Source: Gemmatimonadota bacterium (lineage in GTDB: Bacteria; 4572-55; J002). Taken from it: a stretch of DNA of 62,309 nt. Location: assembly GCA_003697105.1 (NCBI GenBank), contig RFFQ01000131.1, positions 1 through 62,309 on the forward strand. Reading direction: 5' to 3'. This document shows positions 19,490-62,163 of this stretch, piece after piece. The notes under the pieces were generated by a model, which was not told the DNA's origin, did no database searches, and saw only the letters and a list, made by a program, of their open reading frames with translations. Position numbers and translations under genes: made by a program. Position 1 is the stretch's first letter, and every line of letters begins with the position of its first letter.

Positions 19490-22400
19490 TCAGAGGGTTT
19501 CCAGTTGGTTTTCGATAGATTGACCCGGTTTCAGGATAACCCCCCAACTCTGTTTACCGTCCAGATAGGTTGGGCAGGCTTCCGGGAAGGAAATCCAGCG
19601 TAAGTAGGTGGTTTCTTTTTTCGCCGGTTGTTGGTCGAGCCAATCCCACGCCACGTAATCAATTGGGTGGTTGTAATTCACAGAAAAATAACCGATACCG
19701 AGGGAGGTAATGTTTTGGAAAAAATGGGTCCCTTGCGAAGGTTCAATGTTATAGTTGCTGAGTCCAGCTTCCACCAATACCCGTGCCCCGGAAATTTGAG
19801 ACCATTCCACCGGAATCCCCAACGAATGATCGGAAGATCCCCAGCGACCGGGTCCGATTAAAATATAATGTCGGTTCTGTTTCAGGCATTCCGCATTGAT
19901 CATCCCGATTTCGGTGGCAATGTCCCTCGTTTTGAGTGAGGAAAACGTGTTGGGCTTCACGTAAATCAGGTCATGAATCGTGGTAATCCGTCCATTGCCG
20001 AGGGCTTGGCGGCTCCGGCAGATGGTATCTTCTTGGGGCAGGCTATCAAAATCCACATTAATACTTTCCAGAGTAGCAACCATGGGGCGGATTTGCAACA
20101 GCGCCATCTCACTTTTTTCGTTAGGGTTTGCCGGTAAATTAACGGCAAATTCTATCTCCACGGGACCTCCGAAACTTCTCTTACCGATCTCCAGCAATTT
20201 TTCCAGAATTTCCGCCAATGGAAAGGTTTTGTACTTCAACATTTGAGCAAACGTGACCACCCGGATTCCTTTCCGGTACACCGAATCATACAGTCGCTCA
20301 TTTTCATAGGAATAGACACTGCCTACCGGATGTAGCGTTCCATCGACTTCGGCATCACTCAGATTCAGTTTAACGAGGGTTTCATCCTCATTCGCCGTCA
20401 AATTCGGGGTTGGATTCTTCAGATCGAGGGCGTAGAATATCGTCTGGGACGTTTGGAGGATGTTCTCGATGGTACCAAACTGATGAATCACCTCTGGATA
20501 TTTGGGCGAAAAGCTGAGGACGTGTCCCCCCTCCACAATCAATTTACCTAAGCCTAATGCTACAAATGCCAGTCCATCATGTGCGGTTTGGGGTTCAATG
20601 GGATAAAAATTATAGGATTGGGCGACACCGGAAAAATTGGGGTAAAAGCGTTGGTTATAAGCTCTGCCGACCAATTTTTGGAGGACAATTCCCATTTTTT
20701 CCTCTTCGATGCGGAACGGAGTGCCCTCTAAATACGCTTTGGTACTCGAAAAATACGTTGAGGCATAAATATGCTTAATGGCACTGGCTAATTGTTGGTA
20801 ACGGACTTCGCTATCGGGGTGATTGTTCGGCAACATGTAGGTTGTATAAATGCCGGCAAAGGGTTGGTAGCGTGAATCTTCCAACAAACTGGATGAGCGC
20901 ACTGCCAGCGGTTTGTTAATTTGTTCAATGACAATACGGAGTGCTTTTTCGAGGTCTTCAGGTAATTTTGCATCTTCAAAACGGGCTAAGATCAGGTTAT
21001 TGCTGTTCTCTTCGATAGCAAACGTTTTGAGTTTATTTTCTTCTAAAAATTTATCAAACTGGTCGGTGGCAATCACGACGGTGGCGGGCACAAAAATATG
21101 GACGTTTTCAAACAATTGTTGCATTCGCTGGCGGTTAAAGATCGCCGACAAATAGGCAAGGCTACGGGCTTTCCCCCCAATGGAACCGTTACCGATCTTG
21201 AAGAATCCGCGTTCGGTATCAAAACGATCTTTTATAAACGCACTAATGGCGGCATCGTGCTTTTCAGACCGGGTTTGGCGCATGAGTTTTAATAGATATT
21301 GGCGCATTTCTTCAATATCATCAAAATCTTCCATACGCTGGGGACGGAGTTGTTCCGCTAATGTAAATTCCCCCCGAGCGAAGAACCAGTGAGAAAAGTG
21401 GTTATGGCGTGCATGGTATTCAATGGACTCGAGCGGCATCTCGGCAAACGTTTTAATCATGCTGTCCATATCTTCGGCACGGCCAACCTCCTCCCCTCGT
21501 GGAGAACGGAAAACAAAATCCCCAAACCCGAAGTTCTGTTGTAAAAAGCGGCTGATTTTTTTGAGCAACTCCGGTGAATTTTTGTTGATAAATGCCACGT
21601 TCAGCCGTCGGGCATGGGTTTCATTATCCGGTTCGGCGGATTGGAGTGCCACTGGAATATAGGGGTTTACCCGGCGAATTTCTTCAATTAATTTTAGACC
21701 GGCTTCCGGGTGTTTTTTACCATTCTTCGGGAAATTGATGTCCGAGATGACCCCCAACAGATTAAATTCGTATTTTTGAAAAAGCTCGATGGCTTCTTCA
21801 TACGTTTTTGCCAGCAGAATTTTGGGACGAACTCGCATTTGGAGCAATTTTTCCAATTCATTCGCTCCCGATTGGATCAACGCCCGGGTTTGTTTAAACA
21901 CTTCATTATAGATCATGGGGAGAAACAGCGAATAGTACCGTACCGAGTCTTCCACAACGATGATAACCCGAACTTTTCCTTTTTCGAGGTCGTTATCAAT
22001 ATTCTGGCGATCTTCAAAGTGCTTGAAAACAGTTAAAAAGATTGCGGAGTCCCCCGACCAAAAAAATACCTGATCGACCTTCTGCAACCCTCCAGACTTG
22101 TGGTAACGGTCATATTCCGCGATGGTGGAAATCATCATCACAATCGGTAATTTCGGATATTTTTCCTTCAATTTTTGGCTGAATGTGCCGGGGTCCACGT
22201 CTTCGACTTGTCCCATCATGATAACCAAATCGAACTGTTGGCGGGTGTCGTCATGGTGGTGCAACTTATGGAAGGCTTCTTTACCACTACCGGCGTGGAT
22301 GATACGGGGTACGGCAAAGCGGAAATTCATATTGAGGTAAACCGCCATGATCCGCTCATTCAGTTGCCCATCTTCCTCCAGCACAAAATAGTCATAAGGG

Positions 22401-22876
22401 CTGGAGACCAGTAGGATCGTCTGAATGCGGTTTGGCATTAAATCGTGAACGATTTGAAAAGGCGGTTGGTAGGTGAGGTTGTGCCTTTGCTGGCGTTGGA
22501 TATTCTGAAGGATATTTTGCCGGACACTATCGATCAATTTTCGGATGTTGAGCGGCTTTTGGAGTATGTCATCGACTAGCCCGTACAGATTTTCTTTAGC
22601 CTCTTGTACTTTGTGCTCTGTCGCAATGCAGATCGTAGCTATCGTTTTTTTGAAGCGGCGTTGAACAATCTCAAATAGTTCCCGGCCGGTCATATCCGGG
22701 AGTAGATAATCTGCAATAATGAGGTCATATTTCGTTGTATCAAGATAATCGAATCCATCTTTTCCGGTAGTAACTAGCGTTATATCAAACCCGCCGCCTG
22801 CCAGTGTTCGCTTCAGGAGTTCGCCGGCTTCGTGGTCGTCTTCAATGATGAGCAATTTTGCCGAAATCGGATGCAT
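19490..22876 (-). CDS. Multi-receiver protein fused to a PEP-synthase/PPDK-type nucleotide-binding domain
   Basis: REC1 (IIEDD..IIADYLLP..KP), degenerate REC2 and REC3 (VVEDS..ISDINFP). GGKARSL, AVRSSSLLED..FAG.Y, LQIRP and PSQGTHFFQN. Confidence 0.85.
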   Translation of the reverse strand: MHPISAKLLIIEDDHEAGELLKRTLAGGGFDITLVTTGKDGFDYLDTTKYDLIIADYLLPDMTGRELFEIVQRRFKKTIATICIATEHKVQEAKENLYGLVDDILQKPLNIRKLIDSVRQNILQNIQRQQRHNLTYQPPFQIVHDLMPNRIQTILLVSSPYDYFVLEEDGQLNERIMAVYLNMNFRFAVPRIIHAGSGKEAFHKLHHHDDTRQQFDLVIMMGQVEDVDPGTFSQKLKEKYPKLPIVMMISTIAEYDRYHKSGGLQKVDQVFFWSGDSAIFLTVFKHFEDRQNIDNDLEKGKVRVIIVVEDSVRYYSLFLPMIYNEVFKQTRALIQSGANELEKLLQMRVRPKILLAKTYEEAIELFQKYEFNLLGVISDINFPKNGKKHPEAGLKLIEEIRRVNPYIPVALQSAEPDNETHARRLNVAFINKNSPELLKKISRFLQQNFGFGDFVFRSPRGEEVGRAEDMDSMIKTFAEMPLESIEYHARHNHFSHWFFARGEFTLAEQLRPQRMEDFDDIEEMRQYLLKLMRQTRSEKHDAAISAFIKDRFDTERGFFKIGNGSIGGKARSLAYLSAIFNRQRMQQLFENVHIFVPATVVIATDQFDKFLEENKLKTFAIEENSNNLILARFEDAKLPEDLEKALRIVIEQINKPLAVRSSSLLEDSRYQPFAGIYTTYMLPNNHPDSEVRYQQLASAIKHIYASTYFSSTKAYLEGTPFRIEEEKMGIVLQKLVGRAYNQRFYPNFSGVAQSYNFYPIEPQTAHDGLAFVALGLGKLIVEGGHVLSFSPKYPEVIHQFGTIENILQTSQTIFYALDLKNPTPNLTANEDETLVKLNLSDAEVDGTLHPVGSVYSYENERLYDSVYRKGIRVVTFAQMLKYKTFPLAEILEKLLEIGKRSFGGPVEIEFAVNLPANPNEKSEMALLQIRPMVATLESINVDFDSLPQEDTICRSRQALGNGRITTIHDLIYVKPNTFSSLKTRDIATEIGMINAECLKQNRHYILIGPGRWGSSDHSLGIPVEWSQISGARVLVEAGLSNYNIEPSQGTHFFQNITSLGIGYFSVNYNHPIDYVAWDWLDQQPAKKETTYLRWISFPEACPTYLDGKQSWGVILKPGQSIENQLETL

Positions 22877-25247: not shown

Positions 25248-25347
25248 ACAAGTCTATCTAAACGAAAGACATGAAATTCAATCTGAATAGACGCCCTTTT
25301 GGTTTGCCAGAGGCACTATTTTTCATTTTAGAAGTTAGGTGATATTT

Positions 25348-26433
25348 ATGACGACGCGCTTTTCAGAAGTGAGAGTCGATCCGGTACCATGGCTTTTGGA
25401 GAATGCCGGACCGGTCATCCGGTATCGGACACTGGTTGATATTTTGGAAAAACCGCTGGATGACCCAGAAGTCCAGAAAGCCCGTCAGGCGATCTTAAAA
25501 ACGAAACATGCCAAGGAAGTCTTGGATAATATTGGTGATGATGGGAGTTGGTTCGGCCGGTTGGTGGAAGGGAGTTCGCATAACGGTGCATGTACGGAGA
25601 CGATGTTTCCCCGAATGTTGGAATTGGGATTTCTGCCCGGTGATGAGGTGGTGGAACGTGCCGCAACATTCCAGTGGCATCTTTTGGAACAGGGTATGGA
25701 AGCAGATACCAAAGAATTTAACCATCATGACCAACAAACCTACGCCTATAAGCACATCACATTTTTACCGGCATCGTATTTAGCCCGAATTGGGTATCAG
25801 GATGACCCCCGGGTAACCGAAGTGTTTGATAAGCTACATGCGGGATTGGTAGAATTTTTCGAGAATGATTTGCAACATAATTTATGGGAACGAAAAAAAA
25901 ATGTCCTGCTGATTAAAGAAGATAGCCTCTGGTTGCACGATTCCTTTATCCTACCAGATTTATACTACTTGGAAACCTTTGCCTACCATCCCACGCTGAA
26001 AACCACCCCCAAATGGAAACCCATTTTCAAAAAATGTATGGAGTGGTGGCTGGAAGGTGGTCGTCCACAAGGTTTAGGCTCGTTTGTGTGGGAACGAACG
26101 AATATTGTGCATGGGAATAACGTCAATTTTCATACGTTAGAGGTGGCGCAATCCTACCAAATGACCCGCCATTACTTGATCAAAATGGAACAAGCCCTGC
26201 GGACAGGCTTTGCCGCCGAGTTTGATTATTTCCAGACGGAAATCTTAAAGCTCGCCGCTTTACAACATCCGGAAGGGTTTTGGGAATTGAATGGGATGAC
26301 CAATAGCCCGCAACAACTGGAATATCAATATATCCCATTGGAAGATAAGTGGAAAGGCTCTGCCCGAGAAGTGGATGTGACCTTTCGGGTCGTGCAGATT
26401 CTGAAGCACTTTGAACGCTCGATCACCGCTTGA
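25348..26433 (+). CDS. Hypothetical protein, probable (alpha/alpha)-toroid / prenyltransferase-repeat-like fold
   Basis: PVPWLLE..P.IRYRTL.D.L, DDGSW, LQHPEGFW and C-terminal TFRV..IL patterns. Alternative GTG at 25339. Confidence 0.55.
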   Translation: MTTRFSEVRVDPVPWLLENAGPVIRYRTLVDILEKPLDDPEVQKARQAILKTKHAKEVLDNIGDDGSWFGRLVEGSSHNGACTETMFPRMLELGFLPGDEVVERAATFQWHLLEQGMEADTKEFNHHDQQTYAYKHITFLPASYLARIGYQDDPRVTEVFDKLHAGLVEFFENDLQHNLWERKKNVLLIKEDSLWLHDSFILPDLYYLETFAYHPTLKTTPKWKPIFKKCMEWWLEGGRPQGLGSFVWERTNIVHGNNVNFHTLEVAQSYQMTRHYLIKMEQALRTGFAAEFDYFQTEILKLAALQHPEGFWELNGMTNSPQQLEYQYIPLEDKWKGSAREVDVTFRVVQILKHFERSITA

Positions 26434-27905
26434 TTTGTCACGAAATGGATCTTTCGACGCTTCGTCAGCAAAACATCCATATCGTGGGGGCAACCAGTGC
26501 CGAAGGTAGCGCCATTTTGGATTTTTTACTCGATCACGGCTGTGAATGCCTTACCGCGCACGATGTCTGTGCTCCGCGTGAAATCCATCGCCATTACCGC
26601 CTGACCCACCTCACACAACCGGTTAAAGCGGTCAATGCAACTATCCGGCGATGGAAATCTGCAGTTACGCTCTGTCATGCGGATGATTATCTGAAGGGAA
26701 TCGAACATGCAGACCTGATTTTTGTGACGCAGGCATGGTTCAAATATCCACCGAATTTCCCGAAATTACCCGAAGTGCGGCAACAAGGTATCCCTTTTCG
26801 AACGATTACCCAACTCTATTTTGAATTGTTTCCCGGCACCATCATCGGCATTACCGGTACCAACGGTAAATCCACGACCACGGCTCTGGTCGCCCAGATA
26901 CTGGAACAGGAAGCCCGTCTTACCGGGACGTTTCGGGTATTGCATAGTGGTAACGAGCGCCATGTTTCCCAAGTACTGGATCAGTTGGAGCACTGCTCAC
27001 CAGCAGATGTACTGGTCTTGGAAATCAGTAACCGGCAATTGATCGAACTGGATCGCGCTCCCCATATTGCCACCATCACCAACATCACTCCCGATCATCT
27101 GGATGACCACCCCTCGTTTGCGGATTATGTCCAGATCAAGACCAAGATGTTCCGCCTGCAAACCCCAGATGATGTGGCAATTTTGAATCGAGACCATGAA
27201 TTGACCCGACAAATACAATCCGTGGTAACTGCCAAACGGGTGTTGACGTACAGTTTTAAGGGCGATCCCGCCGCAGAAGCGATATATCGGGATGACCACT
27301 TGTGGTGGCGCCAACCGGATGGCGACTTTCAACCGATCTGTCACCGCTCGGAATTCCCGTTGCGAGGTAATCATAATATTGAAAATGCACTGGCGGCAAT
27401 ATTGACGACAAAAGCGTTTGGTGCTCGGTCGGAAGCGATTCAGTCGGCATTGCAATCCTTTCGAGGATTGCCCTATCGCACGGAAGTGGTCGCTACATTG
27501 GATGGAGTGGAATACATCAATGATGTGAAAAGTACCACACCTGCCGCCACGATTGCGGCACTTCAATCCCTCTCCCAACCCGTTATTTTGATTGCCGGCG
27601 GAGGAGGTAAAGGGGATTTAGATTATCAGCCCTTAGCACATCAGATTTCCCAACACGTTAAAGCACTTATTTTGCTGTCAGGTGAGGGTGCTACTGCCAT
27701 TGCGGCGGCTATGGCAGGTCTTGATACCCCGCTGTATTACCAACAGACGCTAGAACAAGCCATTTTGCAGGCAAAAACCTTGGCTGTGGCGGGTGATGTG
27801 GTACTTCTCTCACCAGCATGTCCTTATTTTTCCAGCACTTTTGGTGCATCACCCCGCGGCGGTTTCACCCAACTGATCGAGGAGTTACAACAAAACCATG
27901 CATGA
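26430..27905 (+). CDS. murD: MurD-like ATP-dependent amino acid ligase (divergent)
   Basis: GITGTNGKSTT, VLEIS, NITPDHLD.H, HNIEN, GLPYRTE, YIND.K.T, LIAGG and LLSPAC. Confidence 0.75.
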   Translation: MICHEMDLSTLRQQNIHIVGATSAEGSAILDFLLDHGCECLTAHDVCAPREIHRHYRLTHLTQPVKAVNATIRRWKSAVTLCHADDYLKGIEHADLIFVTQAWFKYPPNFPKLPEVRQQGIPFRTITQLYFELFPGTIIGITGTNGKSTTTALVAQILEQEARLTGTFRVLHSGNERHVSQVLDQLEHCSPADVLVLEISNRQLIELDRAPHIATITNITPDHLDDHPSFADYVQIKTKMFRLQTPDDVAILNRDHELTRQIQSVVTAKRVLTYSFKGDPAAEAIYRDDHLWWRQPDGDFQPICHRSEFPLRGNHNIENALAAILTTKAFGARSEAIQSALQSFRGLPYRTEVVATLDGVEYINDVKSTTPAATIAALQSLSQPVILIAGGGGKGDLDYQPLAHQISQHVKALILLSGEGATAIAAAMAGLDTPLYYQQTLEQAILQAKTLAVAGDVVLLSPACPYFSSTFGASPRGGFTQLIEELQQNHA

Positions 27906-28065
27906 ATTTTTAACAGCACGTTGCCCGCTATGTGGGGCGGAAATCGAAATTCCACAAGATACGGATTTTGGCGAACTTTATGAGTGTGACGTATGTGGTG
28001 CTGAAGTTGAAGTGGTTGAACTAGACCCCCTAGAACTCCAACCGGTGACTGAAATTGAAAAATGA
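27898..28065 (+). CDS. LysW-like zinc-ribbon small protein (55 aa, absent from the ORF track)
   Basis: MHEFLTARCPLCGAEIEIPQDTDFGELYECDVCGAEVEVVELDPLELQPVTEIEK. GAGGAG upstream. Overlaps the MurD-like stop and the next start (ATGA). Confidence 0.85.
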   Translation: MHEFLTARCPLCGAEIEIPQDTDFGELYECDVCGAEVEVVELDPLELQPVTEIEK

Positions 28066-29150
28066 GGGATTCTTCTCCCACTCCGGAACTGCCGCACGTG
28101 GCAAGTTGCCATACGGTATGGCGGTATGCGCCATTGTACCGAAAACCTCCGGCTTCAAACTATCACTTAACATTAGCAGAAGGAAATACGCCGTGTCTGG
28201 AAATGCCGTTACTGGCGGATCGGCTAGGTTTAACGGCTTTATTTTTTAAACGTGAAGACCTGAATCCAACCGGCTCGCATAAAGATCGTAGTTTGGCGTT
28301 TCAGGTATCGACCTATTGGGAGCAAGGCTGTTCCCGTTTGCTAATTTCATCCAGTGGAAATGCGGGTGTTTCGGCTTCGGCGTATGCCGCACTGGCAGGG
28401 ATTTCCATGTATGTGTTTGTCTCTCCCCAAACGCCCCGTCACAAACTGGAACGGATTCACCGCTATGGTGGTCACATAATTGCATCGTCGAGAGCGATCA
28501 GCTTTGCCAAGCATATTTCCCGGCAATTGGAGATTCCAAATCTTCGTCCATCGACCAATCCACGCTCTATTGAGGGTTTTCAGTCGATTGGATGGGAACT
28601 TTTTGAACAATTGGGCACCGTAGATTCTATTTTTACGTATGTCAGTAGCGCCAGTTCGTTAATCGGGATCGGGCGTGCATTTCAACGCTTAAAAGATGAG
28701 TTTCATCTACTGGAGAGCGTGCCGCAGCTACATGCGGTCCAATCCGGTTTGGGAACCAGCATTGCCGCCCATTTTGTACCCCAAAAGCAAGATTTACCGA
28801 TGCAGCGGAGTGTGGTCGGTGATTTAGGGGCAAAAAAAACAGCATTAGCCGATGAGGCGATCCGGTTGATTACGGCTACCGGCGGGTCGGGGTGGATTGT
28901 CTCCGATGCCGATATTTTAGCCGCCCGCCACGTGTTGGGGAGGCAATACGGGATTGAAACTTCCAGCGAAGGGTGCGCGGCTTTTGCCGCCCTACAACAC
29001 GCGAGCCAAACACGCCAGTTAGGGCGTGTGGTGGTCCTCCTCACCGGACATGGTTCGCAATGGGAGATGACCTCCCCAGAACTGGATCAATTACCCGTTT
29101 TAAATACGTTTTCCGAAATTGCCACTTATATTGAACGCCACCCCGCCTAG
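28062..29150 (+). CDS. PLP-dependent fold-type II enzyme, threonine-synthase-like (divergent)
   Basis: LAEGNTP, KREDLNPTGSHKDR, SSSGNAG and LLTGHG. Confidence 0.85.
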   Translation: MRDSSPTPELPHVASCHTVWRYAPLYRKPPASNYHLTLAEGNTPCLEMPLLADRLGLTALFFKREDLNPTGSHKDRSLAFQVSTYWEQGCSRLLISSSGNAGVSASAYAALAGISMYVFVSPQTPRHKLERIHRYGGHIIASSRAISFAKHISRQLEIPNLRPSTNPRSIEGFQSIGWELFEQLGTVDSIFTYVSSASSLIGIGRAFQRLKDEFHLLESVPQLHAVQSGLGTSIAAHFVPQKQDLPMQRSVVGDLGAKKTALADEAIRLITATGGSGWIVSDADILAARHVLGRQYGIETSSEGCAAFAALQHASQTRQLGRVVVLLTGHGSQWEMTSPELDQLPVLNTFSEIATYIERHPA

Positions 29151-29162
29151 AATGTGATCTGT

Positions 29163-30062
29163 ATGGATAACCCGTTTACCGATTATCTCCGCCGTTTCAA
29201 AGACTACATCAGCATTGAAAAAGGTCTTGCCGATAATAGTATTGAAGCCTATGATCGAGACCTGACACGTTATTTACATCACTTAGATGACCTTAACCTT
29301 ACCCATTTGGAACAGATTACCCATGATCACATCACCCAATTGCTGATGCAACTGCATGAAATGGGGTTATCTCATGCCAGTATTGCCCGGAATATTTCCG
29401 CCCTGCGCCAATTTCATCAATTTTTGGTTGCCGAGGGCGAGACCGAAAATGACCCCACGGAACTGCTGCGCAATCCACAAATTGGGCGAAAAATTCCGGT
29501 AGTTCTTACGATGGAAGAGGTCGAACGGTTGCTTTCTAGCCCCGATACCCGTACCACCCTAGGGATGCGAGACCAAGCGATGCTGGAATTTATGTATGCG
29601 ACCGGTGTCCGGGTTTCCGAATTGATTGCCTTTAATATTCGTGATTTTTATCCAGATGATGGGTTTGTTCGTGTTTTTGGAAAGGGGTCTAAAGAGCGGA
29701 TTATCCCGATTGGTTCCAAAGCGATAGAAAGTACCCAAACCTACATCGCCGTCGCACGAGAGGTTCTCCGCCGGAGTAAACCCACGGAAACGCTTTTTTT
29801 GAATTGGCACGGGCGCCCCCTCAGCCGGATGGGCTTTTGGAAAATCCTGCAAAAACATGTGGAAGGGGCAAATATTAAAAAAGATATTAGCCCGCATACC
29901 TTGCGCCATACCTTCGCAACCCATCTATTGGAAGGTGGGGCGGACTTACGCGCCGTGCAGGAGATGCTGGGACACCGAACGATTGTAACCACCCAAATTT
30001 ACACTAAAATTGACCGTCAATTTTTGCTGGAAACCCACCGTCACTACCACCCACGGGGATGA
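29163..30062 (+). CDS. xerD: Tyrosine recombinase XerD
   Basis: EKGLADNSI.AY..DL, YATG.RVSEL, GKGSKER, SPHTLRHTFATHLL.GGADLRAVQEMLGH, TTQIYT and C-terminal HPRG. Confidence 0.93.
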   Translation: MDNPFTDYLRRFKDYISIEKGLADNSIEAYDRDLTRYLHHLDDLNLTHLEQITHDHITQLLMQLHEMGLSHASIARNISALRQFHQFLVAEGETENDPTELLRNPQIGRKIPVVLTMEEVERLLSSPDTRTTLGMRDQAMLEFMYATGVRVSELIAFNIRDFYPDDGFVRVFGKGSKERIIPIGSKAIESTQTYIAVAREVLRRSKPTETLFLNWHGRPLSRMGFWKILQKHVEGANIKKDISPHTLRHTFATHLLEGGADLRAVQEMLGHRTIVTTQIYTKIDRQFLLETHRHYHPRG

Positions 30063-30089: not shown

Positions 30090-32132
30090 ATGCAGTATCG
30101 TTTCAAGGACATTCCCATGCGGATCAAATTATTGCTCGCGTTTGGGATGATCGTGTTACTGCCAGTACTGATTGTAACTTGGTTTGCCATCGGTCAGATT
30201 ACCAGCAAAATTGAAGATAGCCTCCAAAATCGGGTCAATGAATCTCTCGATGTCGCCCTCAACGCGTACACGCAATTTCGGGATCGGGCGTTGGAAAACG
30301 CCAAAATTCTGGCAGAGTTGCGTACCCTCCAAAATTATATCAATCATTATGATACGGAAGCAATGAATCTTATCCAATTGGTGGAAATTAAACGCGACCA
30401 GTTTGATGCGATTACCCTCGAAATCGCCGATGCAAGAGGGGATATTCTCTATCGGAGTTACGAAGCTATTCCGGACCGGCGCGAGTATTTATATGACTCC
30501 CAAGACCCAACGATTTTGCGTGCCATACAATATTCAGAAGGCATCTCGGTGCGAGCCTCCGAACATGGGATTTCGGTCAAAGGGGTGGTACCGGTACGAA
30601 CATATGCAGACCCGTTTGGTGTGATTTTGTTGGGGTATCTGCTGGATGATACCTTTGCCGACCAAATTCACCAAATTACAGGCACGGATGTCGGCATTCG
30701 GATTTATCTCAACTCGCGGGTGATCGCCGCAGCATTTGCCGCTACGGCAGCAGGGAGCCGGGAACAGATTCTTAAAGAGGTAAAATCACAAGCGGCACGA
30801 CCTGAAATTACCCAACATGTTATTAAAGACGGTATTCGGAATTGGAGTTACCGCGAAACCATTCGAGGAAATGAATATCAAACAGCTTTTGCCCCTATCA
30901 GCGGTGATAATGGCGAGATTATCGGCATGATTTCCGTGGCGATTCAACGCGATAATATTGATGCCATCAAACGCCTGTCAGCGATATTCTTATTTGTCGC
31001 CGCCATTGTGGCGTTGATTCTTGCCACACTCACTGCCTTTTTTATCTCGCGAGAAATTACAGTCCCGCTCCAACGCTTTGTGGAAGGCTCCCGCGCCATC
31101 TCCGCCGGAGATTTTACCCAACGGATCAACCTCCATTCCCGCGATGAAATTGGGGTTCTGGCAAACACTTTCAACCAGATGACCCAAGATTTATTTGACC
31201 AACGAGAACAATTGCGGAAGGCAAATCAACAATTGACCGAGTATGCCGCCCAATTAGAACAAACCAATTTAGAATTGACGGCCGCCAAACAACGCATCGA
31301 ACGGTGGAATGAAGAATTAGAACAAACCGTTAAAGAACGTACCGAACAGTTAGAAATTTCCAACCGCGAATTGAAAAAACTGCATGAAATGCGCACCGAA
31401 TTTTTAAACATGGCAACCCATGAACTGCGCACCCCCATTACCGCGATTAAAGGATATTCCGATTTTATGCTGATGGGAATGATGGGCGAAATTAACGATA
31501 AACAGCGCAAAGCCATTTCTGCCATCCGCGAAAGTGGAGAACGGCAACTCGCCCTCATCAACGATATGCTAGACCTCGCTAAAATTGAGGCAGGGCGAAT
31601 CCAACTGGAAGTCGAACCGACGCCCCTGTGGGTGATCGCCGCCAATAATCTGCACATGATCCGCCCCTTAGCAGAAGAAAAGGGCATTACGCTGGAAAAC
31701 CAAATCCCCCGTGATTTTCCAGACGTTTATGTGGATAAAGATAAACTAACACAGGTGTTTACCAACTTGCTCAGCAATGCCATCAAATATACGGATGATG
31801 GGGGGCGAGTGACCATCACCGCCAGTGTTATTTCGGAAGAGCATGTGCAAGTTTCTGTCTCGGATACGGGTGTCGGTATCCCACCGGAAGATTTACCGAA
31901 AGTGTTTGAAAAGTTTACCAAAATTTCCAACCAACCCACCCGCAATGAAAAAGGCACCGGTTTGGGTCTGCCGATTGTCAAATTGATCGTAGAGGCACAC
32001 GGGGGCGAAATTTGGGTTGAAAGTGAACTCAACAAAGGAACATCCTTCTCTTTTACCATTCCTATCTTTCAATATGAAGCGCAATTGAAAGAACAAGCCC
32101 AACGTATCGAACGATCATTAACTTCCACATGA
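30090..32132 (+). CDS. Sensor histidine kinase (Cache-like periplasmic domain, HAMP, HisKA, HATPase)
   Basis: Two TMs, DEIG.LA..FN.M, THELRTP, NLLSNAIKY, DTGVGI and GTGLGL. Confidence 0.92.
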   Translation: MQYRFKDIPMRIKLLLAFGMIVLLPVLIVTWFAIGQITSKIEDSLQNRVNESLDVALNAYTQFRDRALENAKILAELRTLQNYINHYDTEAMNLIQLVEIKRDQFDAITLEIADARGDILYRSYEAIPDRREYLYDSQDPTILRAIQYSEGISVRASEHGISVKGVVPVRTYADPFGVILLGYLLDDTFADQIHQITGTDVGIRIYLNSRVIAAAFAATAAGSREQILKEVKSQAARPEITQHVIKDGIRNWSYRETIRGNEYQTAFAPISGDNGEIIGMISVAIQRDNIDAIKRLSAIFLFVAAIVALILATLTAFFISREITVPLQRFVEGSRAISAGDFTQRINLHSRDEIGVLANTFNQMTQDLFDQREQLRKANQQLTEYAAQLEQTNLELTAAKQRIERWNEELEQTVKERTEQLEISNRELKKLHEMRTEFLNMATHELRTPITAIKGYSDFMLMGMMGEINDKQRKAISAIRESGERQLALINDMLDLAKIEAGRIQLEVEPTPLWVIAANNLHMIRPLAEEKGITLENQIPRDFPDVYVDKDKLTQVFTNLLSNAIKYTDDGGRVTITASVISEEHVQVSVSDTGVGIPPEDLPKVFEKFTKISNQPTRNEKGTGLGLPIVKLIVEAHGGEIWVESELNKGTSFSFTIPIFQYEAQLKEQAQRIERSLTST

Positions 32133-33250
32133 TGCCCACTTCCGCATTTCTTCAATCTCTGGGGATTACGCGACCCACTGCCATACTGGATGCCGTTCAA
32201 GCCCGGCAAAATATCCGGCACATGGCACAAAAAGCCGCTCAAGCAAACATCCGGTTCCGCCCCCATTTCAAAACCCACCAGTCCGCTGAGATCGGGCAAT
32301 GGTTTCAAACCGAAGGCGTTACGACGATCACGGTCTCATCGTTTTCAATGGCGCATTATTTTGTGGAGCACGGCTGGCAGGATATTACCGTCGCCTTTCC
32401 GGTCAATGTGCGGGAGATGGATGCGATCAACCGGTTGGCTTCCCAGATTCAATTAGGCGTGTTGGTGGAATCCCTCGCCACGATAGATGCGTTGCAACGA
32501 GGCATCCAGCATCCGGTACAGGTCTGGTTGGAAATTGATACCGGTTATCATCGAACCGGTCTGGTGTGGGATGATGGAGACCGGATTTTGTCTCTTGTGC
32601 GGCATCTGGATTCGGTGGAACATCTTGAGTTTACCGGAATTTTAACCCATACGGGACAGACGTATTATGCGCGTTCCCGTGCCGAAATCCAGTATCTTTA
32701 TCAGGAAACTACCGGGCGGATGCAGTCCATTCAGGATCGACTCCAACAAGCCGGTTTTTCTTGCCAAATTTCCATTGGAGATACCCCTTCATGTGCTGTT
32801 GCCGGCTCATTCGCCGGAATAGATGAAATTCGACCGGGAAATTTTGTGTTTTACGACCAGATGATGTACCAAATTGGTGCTTGCCGTCCCGATCAATTGG
32901 CTTTAGCGGTGGCGTGTCCGGTGGTGGGGGTGTATCCTGAGCGAGGTCAGATAGTGGTGTATGGGGGTGCCGTCCATCTTTCCAAAGAGGCTCTGGTAGA
33001 AACCAGTGGACGGGCCGTGTTCGGATATTTGCAGGAGATTGAAAACGGTCGTTTGGGGCGGATCGCCTATGATGCGCCGGTGATTTCGCTCTCACAAGAA
33101 CATGGAATCATCGACGTACCCCCGGCTATGGAGCGAAAGGTCACGGTCGGGGATATTGTTTTGATTTCGCCGGTGCATTCCTGCTTGACCGCCAACCTGT
33201 ACCCCTTTTATTTGACCTTAACGGGGGAAAACATTAGCCGAATACGGTAA
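32129..33250 (+). CDS. Alanine-racemase-fold PLP enzyme (D-serine dehydratase / D-threonine aldolase-like)
   Basis: RPHFKTH, EIDTGYHRTG, HTGQ, GDTPS, EIRPGNFVFYD, SQEHG and PVHSC. Confidence 0.85.
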   Translation: MMPTSAFLQSLGITRPTAILDAVQARQNIRHMAQKAAQANIRFRPHFKTHQSAEIGQWFQTEGVTTITVSSFSMAHYFVEHGWQDITVAFPVNVREMDAINRLASQIQLGVLVESLATIDALQRGIQHPVQVWLEIDTGYHRTGLVWDDGDRILSLVRHLDSVEHLEFTGILTHTGQTYYARSRAEIQYLYQETTGRMQSIQDRLQQAGFSCQISIGDTPSCAVAGSFAGIDEIRPGNFVFYDQMMYQIGACRPDQLALAVACPVVGVYPERGQIVVYGGAVHLSKEALVETSGRAVFGYLQEIENGRLGRIAYDAPVISLSQEHGIIDVPPAMERKVTVGDIVLISPVHSCLTANLYPFYLTLTGENISRIR

Positions 33251-59797: not shown

Positions 59798-61048
59798 GTG
59801 CCGGTTCATCATCTTCTAAAAGTTTTTGAAAGCCGCAAAATGGCGGCGTTACTCCTGCTGGGTTTTTCTTCCGGCTTGCCCTTACTCCTCACCAACAAAA
59901 CTGTGCAAGCCTGGATGACATTTGAAGGGGTTGATTTGGGCACGGTGGGGCTGTTTAGCCTTGTCGGATTGCCATACTCTCTCAAATTCATCTGGGCACC
60001 CCTGCTAGACCGGTATGTTCCCCCCTTTTTAGGACGTCGGCGCGGCTGGCTGGCAATCACCCAAGTGGGGTTGATGATAGCCCTCGCCACGATGGCGCTC
60101 CATGACCCAACGGTTGCCTTACAAATGCTGGCACTCAACACGGTGATTATCGCGTTTCTGAGTGCCTCGCAAGACATCGCTGTGGATGCCTACCGTACCG
60201 ATGTGTTGGAAGAACGGGAGATGGGCGCCGGAGTTTCGGTCTGGGTGCTGGGCTATCGCGTGGGGATGCTTATCGCCGGGTCTCTCACCTTTGTCATGGC
60301 AAAATATATGTCGTGGCAGATGGTCTATCTCGCTATGTCCGGTTTGATGTTGATTGGCTTGACCACCTCGTTCTGGTCACCTGCCCCCCAAACGGAAAAT
60401 CAAACTCCGACTTCTCTCTTTGATTCTGTTATCTTTCCCTTTATTGATTTTTTTCGCCGCCTGAATGTGACCCGTGCCAGCCTGATTTTACTGTTTATCA
60501 TCCTATACAAATTGGGCGACGGTATTTTGGGCAATATGGCGACACCCTTTTTGATCAAAACCGGTTTTGATGAGATCGACATTGGCTTGATGCAAGGTGT
60601 GGTCGGGCTTCTCGCAACCATGATTGGTGTAGTCGCCGGTGGCGTGATTCTCAGCCGGATCGGCATCAACCGTTCCATGTGGGTGTTTGGGGGGTTGCAG
60701 GCGGTCAGTAACCTGATGTACCTGATCTTGGCAATTGTTGGTAAAAATGATGTAGTAGCGGTGCTGGCGATCAGTGTGGAAAATTTTTGTGCGGGCTTGG
60801 TGACTTCCGGCTTTGTCGCTTATCTGATGAGCCTATGTAACCCTAAATTTTCTGCAACACAATTTGCTTTGCTAACCAGTTTAATGGCAGTTAGCCGGGA
60901 TATTCTGGTTGCACCGGCGGGTAAGATGGCAGAAGCGACCGGCTGGATTTGGTTTTTTTTGATCAGTATCTTGTTGGCGTTGCCCGGCTTATTGTTGTTA
61001 CCGGTTGCCGCCCCTTGGAATGCCCCCGCTGAACAGGTTGAATCATGA
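59798..61048 (+). CDS. ampG: AmpG muropeptide MFS transporter
   Basis: LGFSSGLP, PYSLKFIWAPLLD, GRRRGW, SASQDIAVDAYR and SATQFALLTS. Confidence 0.93.
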   Translation: MPVHHLLKVFESRKMAALLLLGFSSGLPLLLTNKTVQAWMTFEGVDLGTVGLFSLVGLPYSLKFIWAPLLDRYVPPFLGRRRGWLAITQVGLMIALATMALHDPTVALQMLALNTVIIAFLSASQDIAVDAYRTDVLEEREMGAGVSVWVLGYRVGMLIAGSLTFVMAKYMSWQMVYLAMSGLMLIGLTTSFWSPAPQTENQTPTSLFDSVIFPFIDFFRRLNVTRASLILLFIILYKLGDGILGNMATPFLIKTGFDEIDIGLMQGVVGLLATMIGVVAGGVILSRIGINRSMWVFGGLQAVSNLMYLILAIVGKNDVVAVLAISVENFCAGLVTSGFVAYLMSLCNPKFSATQFALLTSLMAVSRDILVAPAGKMAEATGWIWFFLISILLALPGLLLLPVAAPWNAPAEQVES

Positions 61049-62163
61049 TGAATCACCTCCGCTGCCGCACCTGCGGCCAAACCTACAACCCGAATGAGCC
61101 GGTCTGGAGATGTACCTGCGGCGGTCTGCTGGATTTGCACTTTCAGGCAGAATTTCCACTAGACCGGATTCAAGCTCGCCCGCCGGATTTGTGGCGCTAC
61201 CGCGAAGCACTCCCATTGGAGTCCGATGACCACATCATTATCATTGCGCTGGGAGAAGGATTTACCCCGCTATTACCAGTGTGGATCGGTGATAAATCGA
61301 TCTGGATCAAGCAAGAACACCTCTTTCCCACCGGATCGTACAAGGATCGCGGGGCGGCGATGTTGATCAGCAAAAGCGCGGAATTGGGTATCTCACGCGT
61401 GGTGGAGGATTCCTCCGGCAATGCGGGGTGTGCTGTGGCGGCGTACTGTGCCCGCGCCGGTATGGAATGCGATATTTACGTTCCAGCGGATACGTCCGCC
61501 GCTAAACTCGCTCAAATTCAGATGTACGGTGCCACGTTGCACAAAATAGCCGGTTCCCGGGAGGATACCGCTCGAGCCGTGCTGATGGCGGCAGAACAGT
61601 ACTATTATGCCAGCCACTCGTGGAATCCGTTTTTCTTTCACGGTACCAAAACGTTTGCCTATGAAGTCTGCGAACAATTGGGCTGGACTGCCCCGGATAC
61701 AATTATCTTACCGGTGGGCAATGGCACCCTGTTACTGGGGGTTGACATCGGTATGAGCGAGCTACGGAACGCCGGAATCATCCCCCAAAAACCAAAATTG
61801 ATCGCAGTACAAGCGGCACATTGTTCTCCCTTGGCACAACGGTTTTTTAAACCAGATTCCGAGATCACGTCCCCCCAACCCACCATTGCTGAAGGGATTG
61901 CTATCGCGGAACCAATCCGGGGGGAACAAATCCTTGACGCCGTGCGTAATAGTGGCGGTACGTTCATCACCGTTAGCGAGGACGAGATCAAAACCGCCTT
62001 GATCCAGATGGGAACACAAGGGTTTTATATTGAACCCACAGCTGCCGCGACCATTGCCGGTATCCAGCGCTATCTCGCAACAGCCCCCCCAGATGAGGTG
62101 ATCGTGTCCGTTTTTACCGGACATGGGCTTAAAGCCACTGAAAAAATACTAAAATTCCTATAA
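61045..62163 (+). CDS. thrC: Threonine synthase
   Basis: N-terminal C..CG...C.CGG, LGEGFTP, PTGSYKDRG, DSSGNAG, PVGNG and EPT. Confidence 0.85.
   Translation: MMNHLRCRTCGQTYNPNEPVWRCTCGGLLDLHFQAEFPLDRIQARPPDLWRYREALPLESDDHIIIIALGEGFTPLLPVWIGDKSIWIKQEHLFPTGSYKDRGAAMLISKSAELGISRVVEDSSGNAGCAVAAYCARAGMECDIYVPADTSAAKLAQIQMYGATLHKIAGSREDTARAVLMAAEQYYYASHSWNPFFFHGTKTFAYEVCEQLGWTAPDTIILPVGNGTLLLGVDIGMSELRNAGIIPQKPKLIAVQAAHCSPLAQRFFKPDSEITSPQPTIAEGIAIAEPIRGEQILDAVRNSGGTFITVSEDEIKTALIQMGTQGFYIEPTAAATIAGIQRYLATAPPDEVIVSVFTGHGLKATEKILKFL

Follow-up and report, generated by a model that had tools for sequence, protein, structure and literature searches.

Results

A LysW-like gene overlaps murD and a ThrC-like gene

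We analyzed a 62,309-nucleotide (nt) stretch of a Gemmatimonadota bacterium genome (assembly GCA_003697105.1, contig RFFQ01000131.1, positions 1 to 62,309 of the forward strand; hereafter the window) and describe here a small gene for a LysW-like zinc-ribbon protein that ends in lysine, together with the cell-wall enzymes that accompany it and its relatives. The open reading frame (ORF; 27898..28065, + strand) encodes 55 residues with matches to PF21344, TIGR01206 and LysW chains in the PDB, and is a putative Lys-ended carrier. It lies between an atypical murD (26445..27905, +; first ATG at 26445, alternative TTG start at 26430; TIGR01087) and the gene for a ThrC-like fold-type-II pyridoxal phosphate (PLP) enzyme of 362 residues that has no N-terminal ribbon (28062..29150, +; PALP PF00291, 178.5 bits). 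A Shine-Dalgarno-like hexamer, GAGGAG, can be read in the sequence at 27879..27884 (+) and is separated from the ATG by a rather long spacer of 13 nt. The last 8 nt of murD (stop at 27903..27905) are shared with the start of the small ORF, and at 28062..28065 the sequence ATGA holds both the TGA of the small ORF and the ATG of the PLP-enzyme gene. With these two overlaps the three genes look translationally coupled.

The encoded protein is very acidic, with 15 acidic residues against two basic ones (R8 and K55) plus His2. Four Cys codons (27922..27996, +) form two CxxC pairs, C9 (27922-27924) with C12 (27931-27933) and C30 (27985-27987) with C33 (27994-27996), and these putative zinc ligands occupy columns that are invariant in an alignment of 55 sequences (A3). 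The C-terminal tail reads E-I-E-K (28051..28062, +) followed by TGA, with Lys55 as the proposed attachment site. The Pfam model Zn_ribbon_LysW (PF21344) matched at 55.8 bits (cut-off 27, E 3.5e-15), and this ORF was its only match in the window's own genome (96.85% complete, 199 contigs). TIGR01206 lysW scored 52.6 bits, just below its cut-off of 53.2, and NF041070 reached 48.4 bits against a cut-off of 75. Thermus thermophilus LysW (3wwl) matched at 43 bits with 48-50% identity across the globular domain. An AlphaFold2 model built with 55 homologues had a mean predicted local distance difference test (pLDDT) score of 87.3 with low confidence for residues 51-55, suggesting that the EIEK tail is probably flexible. 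When the model was compared with the PDB using Foldseek, the six top matches were all LysW chains, with TM scores of 0.71-0.80 (0.80 to 3wwn_B). A phmmer search of 1.84 billion representatives returned 262 matches at E<=1e-3, no close orthologue among them, and a word-indexed homologue search with the 55-residue protein returned only the protein itself. The ORF is a real gene with the LysW fold. A first-pass annotation, made from the sequence alone, had judged this acidic two-CxxC ORF very likely real from the hexamer and both overlaps, and the above-cut-off family match and the phmmer matches bear this out.

The C-terminal lysine is conserved across phyla

The same annotation had noticed that the EDWGE end of canonical LysW, with its terminal Glu, was missing here, and had asked whether the terminal Lys was conserved among homologues or the product of a frameshift. 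EDWGE is not encoded in any frame just past the stop codon. Contigs from two public sequencing runs span 26400..29200 without an indel and with 0 and 2 substitutions, which is weak support, since the window DNA may itself derive from these runs. No RNA run was among those listed as containing this sequence, and two other runs matched it only in small shares, over short conserved stretches. To survey gene context, a profile (A1) of 24 relatives of the downstream PLP enzyme was used to fetch 80 loci from species genomes, labelled as Chloroflexota/Anaerolineae, many Patescibacteria, Dormibacterota, Armatimonadota, Myxococcota-labelled metagenome-assembled genomes (MAGs) and others. Searching with the window proteins (phmmer) detected a LysW-like ORF in 67 of the 80 loci. 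After trimming to plausible starts, 66 of these 67 proteins ended in Lys and 65 ended in EEK, the two remaining tails being AEK and EEKG. The EEKG tail (L066:4713-4871, -) could be either a real variant or an assembly error. The penultimate Glu was nearly invariant in alignment A3. The single-domain phmmer matches likewise held one set with EDWGE-like tails and another ending in EEEK, EEK or IEK. Conservation of the Lys tail across related loci from other phyla argues that the EIEK end is no error.

Both kinds of carrier occur in one Anaerolineae genome (G386), where an EEK-ended protein is encoded next to MurD and, separately from it, a canonical LysW with the tail EEDWGE (L102, L105), and the Lys-ended and EDWGE-ended carriers are thus distinct types. 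The Lys-ended LysW-like proteins are a widespread family that travels with cell-wall enzymes.

The database also holds many proteins, of up to 1625 residues, in which 2 to 18 LysW-like ribbons stand in tandem, and two-ribbon proteins of about 120-140 residues are common.

The putative carrier belongs to a module with cell-wall genes

The gene company of the carrier was recurrent. Across the 80 loci a ThrC-like gene was present in 78, an ATP-grasp gene directly 3' of the PLP enzyme in 64, a MurD gene (>=120 bits) directly upstream in 54, and an NlpC/P60-like gene in 62. The last fell into two sequence types, of 20 and 42 loci; a hidden Markov model (HMM) from the genes of the type found in the Candidate Phyla Radiation (CPR) missed the Chloroflexota type, for which a second seed was used. 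Pfam assigned the ligase to ATP-grasp_3 and the recurrent further gene to NlpC/P60 (PF00877). FtsW was found in 17/80 loci, MraY in 14/80 and MurG in 13/80, and in Patescibacteria the module often sits inside the division and cell wall (dcw) operon. The commonest arrangement was murD > < lysW thrC-like >, with two others: the same-strand order murD > lysW > thrC-like seen in the window, and lysW > nlpC/P60 > murD > thrC-like. In five loci from Chloroflexota or Armatimonadota the NlpC/P60 domain was fused to the MurD N-terminus; in one of them (L029) a 71-bit NlpC/P60 domain precedes Mur_ligase_M/C. Three genomes had a PLP-enzyme/ATP-grasp locus with the carrier encoded elsewhere, in two of them adjoining MurD (L102, L103). 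In the Microgenomates-type genomes G336-G340 the module genes NlpC/P60, LysW-like, ThrC-like and ATP-grasp lie between mraY and ftsW, in the order FtsI, MurE, arginyltransferase-like, MurC, MurB, MurA, MurF, MraY, NlpC/P60, LysW (on the opposite strand), ThrC-like, ATP-grasp, FtsW, MurG (L101 = G336:C1:166000-185500). In the window's own genome an ATP-grasp gene was found on contig C132 (285 bits) and an NlpC/P60-like gene on contig C73 (86.9 bits; Pfam 74.8).

By gene content the module has five parts, an NlpC/P60-like peptidase, an atypical MurD, LysW-(E)EK, a ThrC-like PLP enzyme and an ATP-grasp ligase, and we are highly confident that the 55-residue protein is a true member of this conserved, cell-wall-linked set. 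No publication that connects LysW-like proteins to Mur ligases, to D-glutamate or to the dcw operon turned up in a search with subscription journals outside its coverage.

The module MurD is atypical

The window MurD matched TIGR01087 at 264.4 bits (cut-off 211.95) over model positions 75-422 only, so that its N-terminal domain is diverged. It was the only MurD-scoring gene of its genome; the four other Mur-ligase matches there resemble, by eye, MurC, MurF, Mpl and MurE. The same pattern was seen in four further genomes (G061-G064), one a complete 1.1-Mb chromosome, where the module MurD was the top match, began at about position 75 and was accompanied by no second MurD. Two relatives from the same class as the window genome (G001 and G002) carry canonical MurD matching positions 1-440, at 467 and 432 bits.

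Aligned to 2jff, the window MurD has D, K and K at the equivalents of E. coli D182, K319 and K348. For a residue survey the window protein was aligned with 54 others scoring >180 bits from loci L022-L097. Among these 55 the D182 equivalent was Asn in 48 and Asp in seven (window included), the K348 equivalent was Lys in 54, H183 was kept in all 55 and the K319 equivalent was variable. Asn at the D182 equivalent in most module MurDs could reflect an altered substrate.

Carrier-bearing genomes lack glutamate racemase

Glutamate racemase (MurI) was scored with TIGR00067 at the family cut-off. It was found in none of the 58 carrier-bearing genomes searched (0/5 in a first set, 0/50 in a further set and 0/3 in the split-locus genomes). 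The window genome (G000) gave no TIGR00067 match at E<=0.001, and neither did G061-G064; two of the further 50 had weak matches below the cut-off, of 99.7 and 43 bits. For the 50, L029, L035, L040 and L053 were omitted as already covered, and L033 and L072 are the same MAGs as L028 and L065. The carrier loci L038, L042, L048, L055, L061, L087, L090, L091, L093, L094 and L097 lie outside the count.

As background, MurI above cut-off was present in 79 of 121 sampled Chloroflexota (81/121 with a match at E<=1e-10; this tally includes the MurI-positive G091, which carries an unpublished flag, and is 80/120 when that genome is left out), in 45 of 151 sampled Patescibacteria (61/151 with any match) and in 8/14 named control genomes. 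The module ATP-grasp was traced in both samples with a profile of its own (A2). Four of the 121 Chloroflexota had it and all four were without MurI (Fisher p 0.011), and in Patescibacteria a MurI match was present in 7 of the 34 ATP-grasp-bearing genomes compared to 54 of the 117 others (p 0.009); these counts and tests come from related genomes and from MAGs of uncertain completeness and are only indicative. The cleanest MurI contrast comes from the class of the window genome itself. MurI is present in G001 (99% complete; 258 bits) and G002 (93% complete; 229 bits), both of which have canonical full-length MurD and no carrier; G000 has the carrier module, the atypical MurD and no MurI. D-amino-acid aminotransferase above cut-off was also absent from the module genomes tested (0/5), and the complete 1.1-Mb genome (G061) had no match of any strength.

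The PLP enzyme belongs to a distinct family and the ATP-grasp ligase is not of the LysX type

The PLP enzyme fell below the cut-off of all ThrC NCBIfam models (best 142.8 against 303) and does not cover about 55 of their N-terminal profile positions. Its closest PDB entry was ThrC 6cgq (148 bits), it has the PLP Lys within SHK and an SSSGN loop, and there was a weak SbnA-family match (48.8 bits). Its relatives form a distinct family carried in source databases as "pyridoxal-phosphate dependent enzyme" or "PLP-dependent lyase/thiolase". Two residues of T. thermophilus ThrC that we take to bind phosphate, Asn154 and Arg160, align with Pro and with a variable residue, a comparison that rests on these presumed roles. 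Homoserine kinase (ThrB) above cut-off was absent from all five module-bearing Patescibacteria searched, which makes threonine synthesis an unlikely role for the ThrC-like enzyme in these bacteria. A structure prediction for the ThrC-like enzyme with PLP and the LysW-like protein scored 0.01 (mark 0.32; own alignments), which speaks neither for nor against binding.

The module ATP-grasp matched RimK at 17 bits, below the cut-off of 21, and the copy in the window's genome had no RimK match. LysX and ArgX chains were absent from the 55 PDB matches of the ATP-grasp profile at E<=0.01.

A second ThrC-type PLP enzyme is encoded in the window at 61045..62163 (+; PALP 246 bits) and carries an N-terminal CxxC...CxC knuckle; it is probably the genuine threonine synthase of this genome. 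The first-pass annotation was right that this protein has the ribbon which the enzyme downstream of the carrier lacks. Its suggestion that the 55-residue protein supplies that ribbon in trans found no support. By BLASTP the carrier matched residues 1-60 of the ThrC at 61045 only at E 0.19 and over the CxxC knuckle alone, the carrier adjoins MurD with the PLP enzyme on another contig in two of the split-locus genomes, and in other genomes the carrier gene is on the opposite strand. A detached ThrC ribbon was therefore rejected, as the protein matches LysW rather than the ThrC N-terminal ribbon.

Neighboring genes in the window

Upstream of murD an ORF of 364 residues (25339..26433, +) ends 11 nt before the murD ATG. 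It matched no Pfam or NCBIfam family and had no homologue in the 80 related loci, and it was rejected as a part of the module on these grounds. About 3 kb downstream of the module, a gene for a 373-residue protein (32129..33250, +) matches Ala_racemase_N (67.5 bits) and a D-serine-dehydratase-type domain (64.2 bits), and is a fold-III PLP enzyme of the kind that acts on D-amino acids. Further upstream, a protein of 1128 residues (19490..22876, -) joins a response-regulator receiver domain to PPDK_N, an ATP-binding domain of phosphoenolpyruvate-utilizing enzymes.

Discussion

Practically all peptidoglycan contains D-glutamate, and the step that supplies it, through MurI, D-amino-acid aminotransferase or the MurD2/MurL pair, is textbook biochemistry and a classic target of antibiotics. 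The best explanation of these data as a whole, to which we give a probability of roughly 0.5, is that the Lys-ended protein is the carrier of a peptidoglycan-precursor module that replaces glutamate racemase. The data link the small protein to the supply or the insertion of D-Glu, position 2 of the stem peptide; that the module supplies it we hold at even odds. The first-pass annotation had recognized a LysW-like gene and had suggested reversed chemistry, with an acyl group on the amine of the terminal Lys. The gene stands, and the reversed chemistry fits a neighborhood that offers an ATP-grasp ligase, a PLP enzyme needing a free alpha-amine and an NlpC/P60 peptidase of gamma-glutamyl type, the chemistry itself being inferred; what that annotation had missed was the cell-wall context, with MurD alongside and glutamate racemase missing.

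In the proposed mechanism the ATP-grasp enzyme would use ATP to join the gamma-carboxyl of L-Glu to the epsilon-amine of the carrier's C-terminal Lys. Lys55 is the candidate tether because ATP-grasp enzymes join a carboxylate to an amine and its epsilon-amine is the only free amine on the tail. The tethered Glu would keep its alpha-amino and alpha-carboxyl groups free, a polarity opposite to that of LysW, and such a gamma-linked Glu would suit the PLP enzyme because an enzyme of this kind needs a free alpha-amine and a free alpha-carboxylate. The fold-type-II PLP enzyme would form an aldimine with the free alpha-amine of the tethered Glu and invert C-alpha. The classic bond cut by NlpC/P60 enzymes is that from gamma-D-Glu to a diamino acid, and the NlpC/P60-like peptidase would free the D-form from the carrier as D-Glu for MurD. 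The fusion of NlpC/P60 to MurD suggests that the peptidase product would pass straight to MurD. Alternatively, cleavage by NlpC/P60 could follow the joining of UDP-MurNAc-L-Ala to the tethered D-Glu by MurD. The net result would be the conversion of L-Glu and ATP to D-Glu in a cell-wall precursor, in one direction only, with the module standing in for glutamate racemase. The exact tether, gamma-Glu on the Lys epsilon-amine, and the epimerization chemistry are put forward tentatively, and we regard this particular combination as rather doubtful. Somewhat short of even odds is the wider proposal of a third, carrier-mediated D-Glu route made up of a reversed LysW, a ThrC-derived epimerase, a cytoplasmic NlpC/P60 and a co-evolved MurD, in which MurI and canonical MurD would have been displaced repeatedly, in Patescibacteria, Chloroflexota, Dormibacterota and the window's hot-spring lineage, and the module may replace MurD itself in some Microgenomates.

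Several observations weigh against this racemase-replacing module. Every step of the chemistry is inferred from enzyme families and gene context. The ATP-grasp is not of the LysX/RimK type, so that loading of the carrier is assumed from context; it has no close characterized relative, its PDB relatives being carbamoyl phosphate synthetase and biotin carboxylase and, weakly, BesA (37.6 bits). Serine and aspartate racemases match the PLP enzyme at just 58-71 bits and belong to another branch, and ThrC-type enzymes carry out beta- and gamma-replacement and are not known to racemize. The EIEK tail in the window deviates from the EEK of the family, and the ATP-grasp and NlpC/P60 genes of this genome lie on other contigs, unlinked to the window genes. 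No gene of the Microgenomates-type genomes G336-G340 reached the MurD cut-off, and the module occupies the murD slot. The MurI counts and tests are subject to the limits given above, and 36/121 Chloroflexota and at least 63/151 Patescibacteria have neither MurI nor the module. MurI above cut-off was also present in five of the 34 ATP-grasp-bearing Patescibacteria. The Lys-ended carrier was absent from all five, so that these genomes do not hold the module and ATP-grasp alone is a poor module marker.

The main rival is that the Lys epsilon-amine acts as a nucleophile on a PLP-bound aminoacrylate or vinylglycine of the ThrC-like enzyme. The carrier would then be the scaffold on which a non-proteinogenic amino acid is assembled, which the ATP-grasp would ligate further before its release for the cell-wall peptide, for example as the diamino acid of position 3. 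This would be akin to CysO-CysM and MetO-MetM, in which the nucleophile is the C-terminus of a small protein, or to SbnA, in which it is an amine. ThrC homologues that work with a small carrier are documented, as with MetM and MetO (10.1101/2024.10.14.618325). The nearest PDB relative of our PLP enzyme is a true ThrC, the weak SbnA-family match points in a similar direction, and a conserved Lys tail would be expected here too. We nevertheless consider it unlikely. The C-N amine bond so formed could not be cleaved by NlpC/P60, yet that gene is present in most loci and in five is fused to MurD. Homoserine kinase was missing from the module-bearing Patescibacteria, and the absence of MurI from all 58 carrier-bearing genomes searched would be left unexplained.

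A non-covalent role, with the protein docking on MurD, on the PLP enzyme or on both as a subunit, adaptor or regulator of zinc-ribbon type and binding through its acidic tail, would account for the 8-nt and 4-nt overlaps that couple its gene to both neighbors. The module MurDs are unmatched over the first ~75 HMM positions, with MurD of carrier-less relatives full length, and the PLP enzyme is without the N-terminal ribbon found in some ThrCs. This is a distinctly improbable reading. The near-invariant last Lys after a Glu is typical of a reactive terminus, as is the terminal Glu of LysW, and no similarity was found between the carrier and the ThrC ribbon. The carrier is kept in G336-G340, where MurD is absent, and at L102 and L103, which have the PLP-enzyme gene elsewhere, and is therefore tied to neither single partner. 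The frequent ATP-grasp ligase is also as in the covalent LysW systems. A plain LysW/ArgW carrier for making lysine or arginine, its tail degenerate or mis-assembled, is scarcely credible and, together with a frameshift artefact, was rejected: the PF21344 match, the near-cut-off TIGR01206 score and the identity to T. thermophilus LysW would favor it, but the terminal Glu is missing, EDWGE is found in no frame, the Lys tail is conserved across phyla, the neighbors are MurD and a PLP enzyme rather than LysX, LysZ, LysY, LysJ and LysK, G386 holds both carrier types, and the contigs of the two runs, possibly from the same source DNA, have no indel.

The Lys-ended carrier of the preferred peptidoglycan-precursor module resembles parts of several known systems. 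With the amino-group carrier proteins LysW/ArgW and their LysX/ArgX ligases (Thermus, Sulfolobus, Thermococcus and Streptomyces secondary metabolism) it shares the four-Cys zinc-ribbon fold, a very acidic character, a flexible C-terminal tail and an ATP-grasp partner, and likely also the logic of tethering a substrate to a small protein that is handed between enzymes. Unlike these proteins it ends in Glu-Lys and not in EDWGE with a terminal Glu, and with Lys in place of Glu at the end, the substrate would be bound through an amine where LysW uses a gamma-carboxyl. The module ATP-grasp also differs in not being of the LysX/RimK type, the context is the cell wall and not lysine or arginine synthesis, and the carrier is accompanied by MurD, a fold-II PLP enzyme and NlpC/P60, with LysZ, LysY, LysJ and LysK absent among the window neighbors, the part of the genome searched for them.

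NlpC/P60 enzymes of the YkfC and LytF type are gamma-D-glutamyl-diamino-acid endopeptidases. The bond that they cut, from gamma-D-Glu to Lys or diaminopimelate, resembles the proposed gamma-Glu-Lys tether, and they belong to the same Pfam family, PF00877. Unlike them, the module NlpC/P60 proteins appear cytoplasmic and in some Chloroflexota are fused to MurD.

The module is also like MurD2/MurL of Xanthomonas (PMC8788868), where a variant MurD sits beside enzyme activity giving the D-configuration in the absence of glutamate racemase, and ATP makes the inversion one-way, as it would in the module. In the L-Glu-adding MurD2 the counterparts of E. coli MurD D182 and K348 are Glu and Arg (PMC8788868); the window MurD, unlike MurD2, keeps the D-Glu-type residues D and K there. 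CysO-CysM and MetO-MetM also pair a small-protein C-terminus with a fold-type-II PLP enzyme, and we propose that the tail here likewise enters the active site; like MetM, the ThrC-like enzyme is routinely misnamed threonine synthase. CysO and MetO are ubiquitin-like beta-grasp proteins with a Gly-Gly thiocarboxylate end that deliver sulfur. The window protein, unlike these, is a zinc ribbon ending in EIEK, and the module holds no sulfur-activating enzyme.

The window adds to the module a lineage with only two same-class genomes, the within-class contrast in MurI and MurD, the EIEK variant and a split module. Many ultra-small CPR bacteria, some Chloroflexota and other uncultured lineages have none of MurI, D-amino-acid aminotransferase or MurD2/MurL, and a carrier-mediated supply, if true, would fill this gap in their D-Glu supply. 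It would also extend the amino-group-carrier principle, with reversed polarity, to cell-wall synthesis and would give a new function to a ThrC-like enzyme that is routinely mis-annotated.

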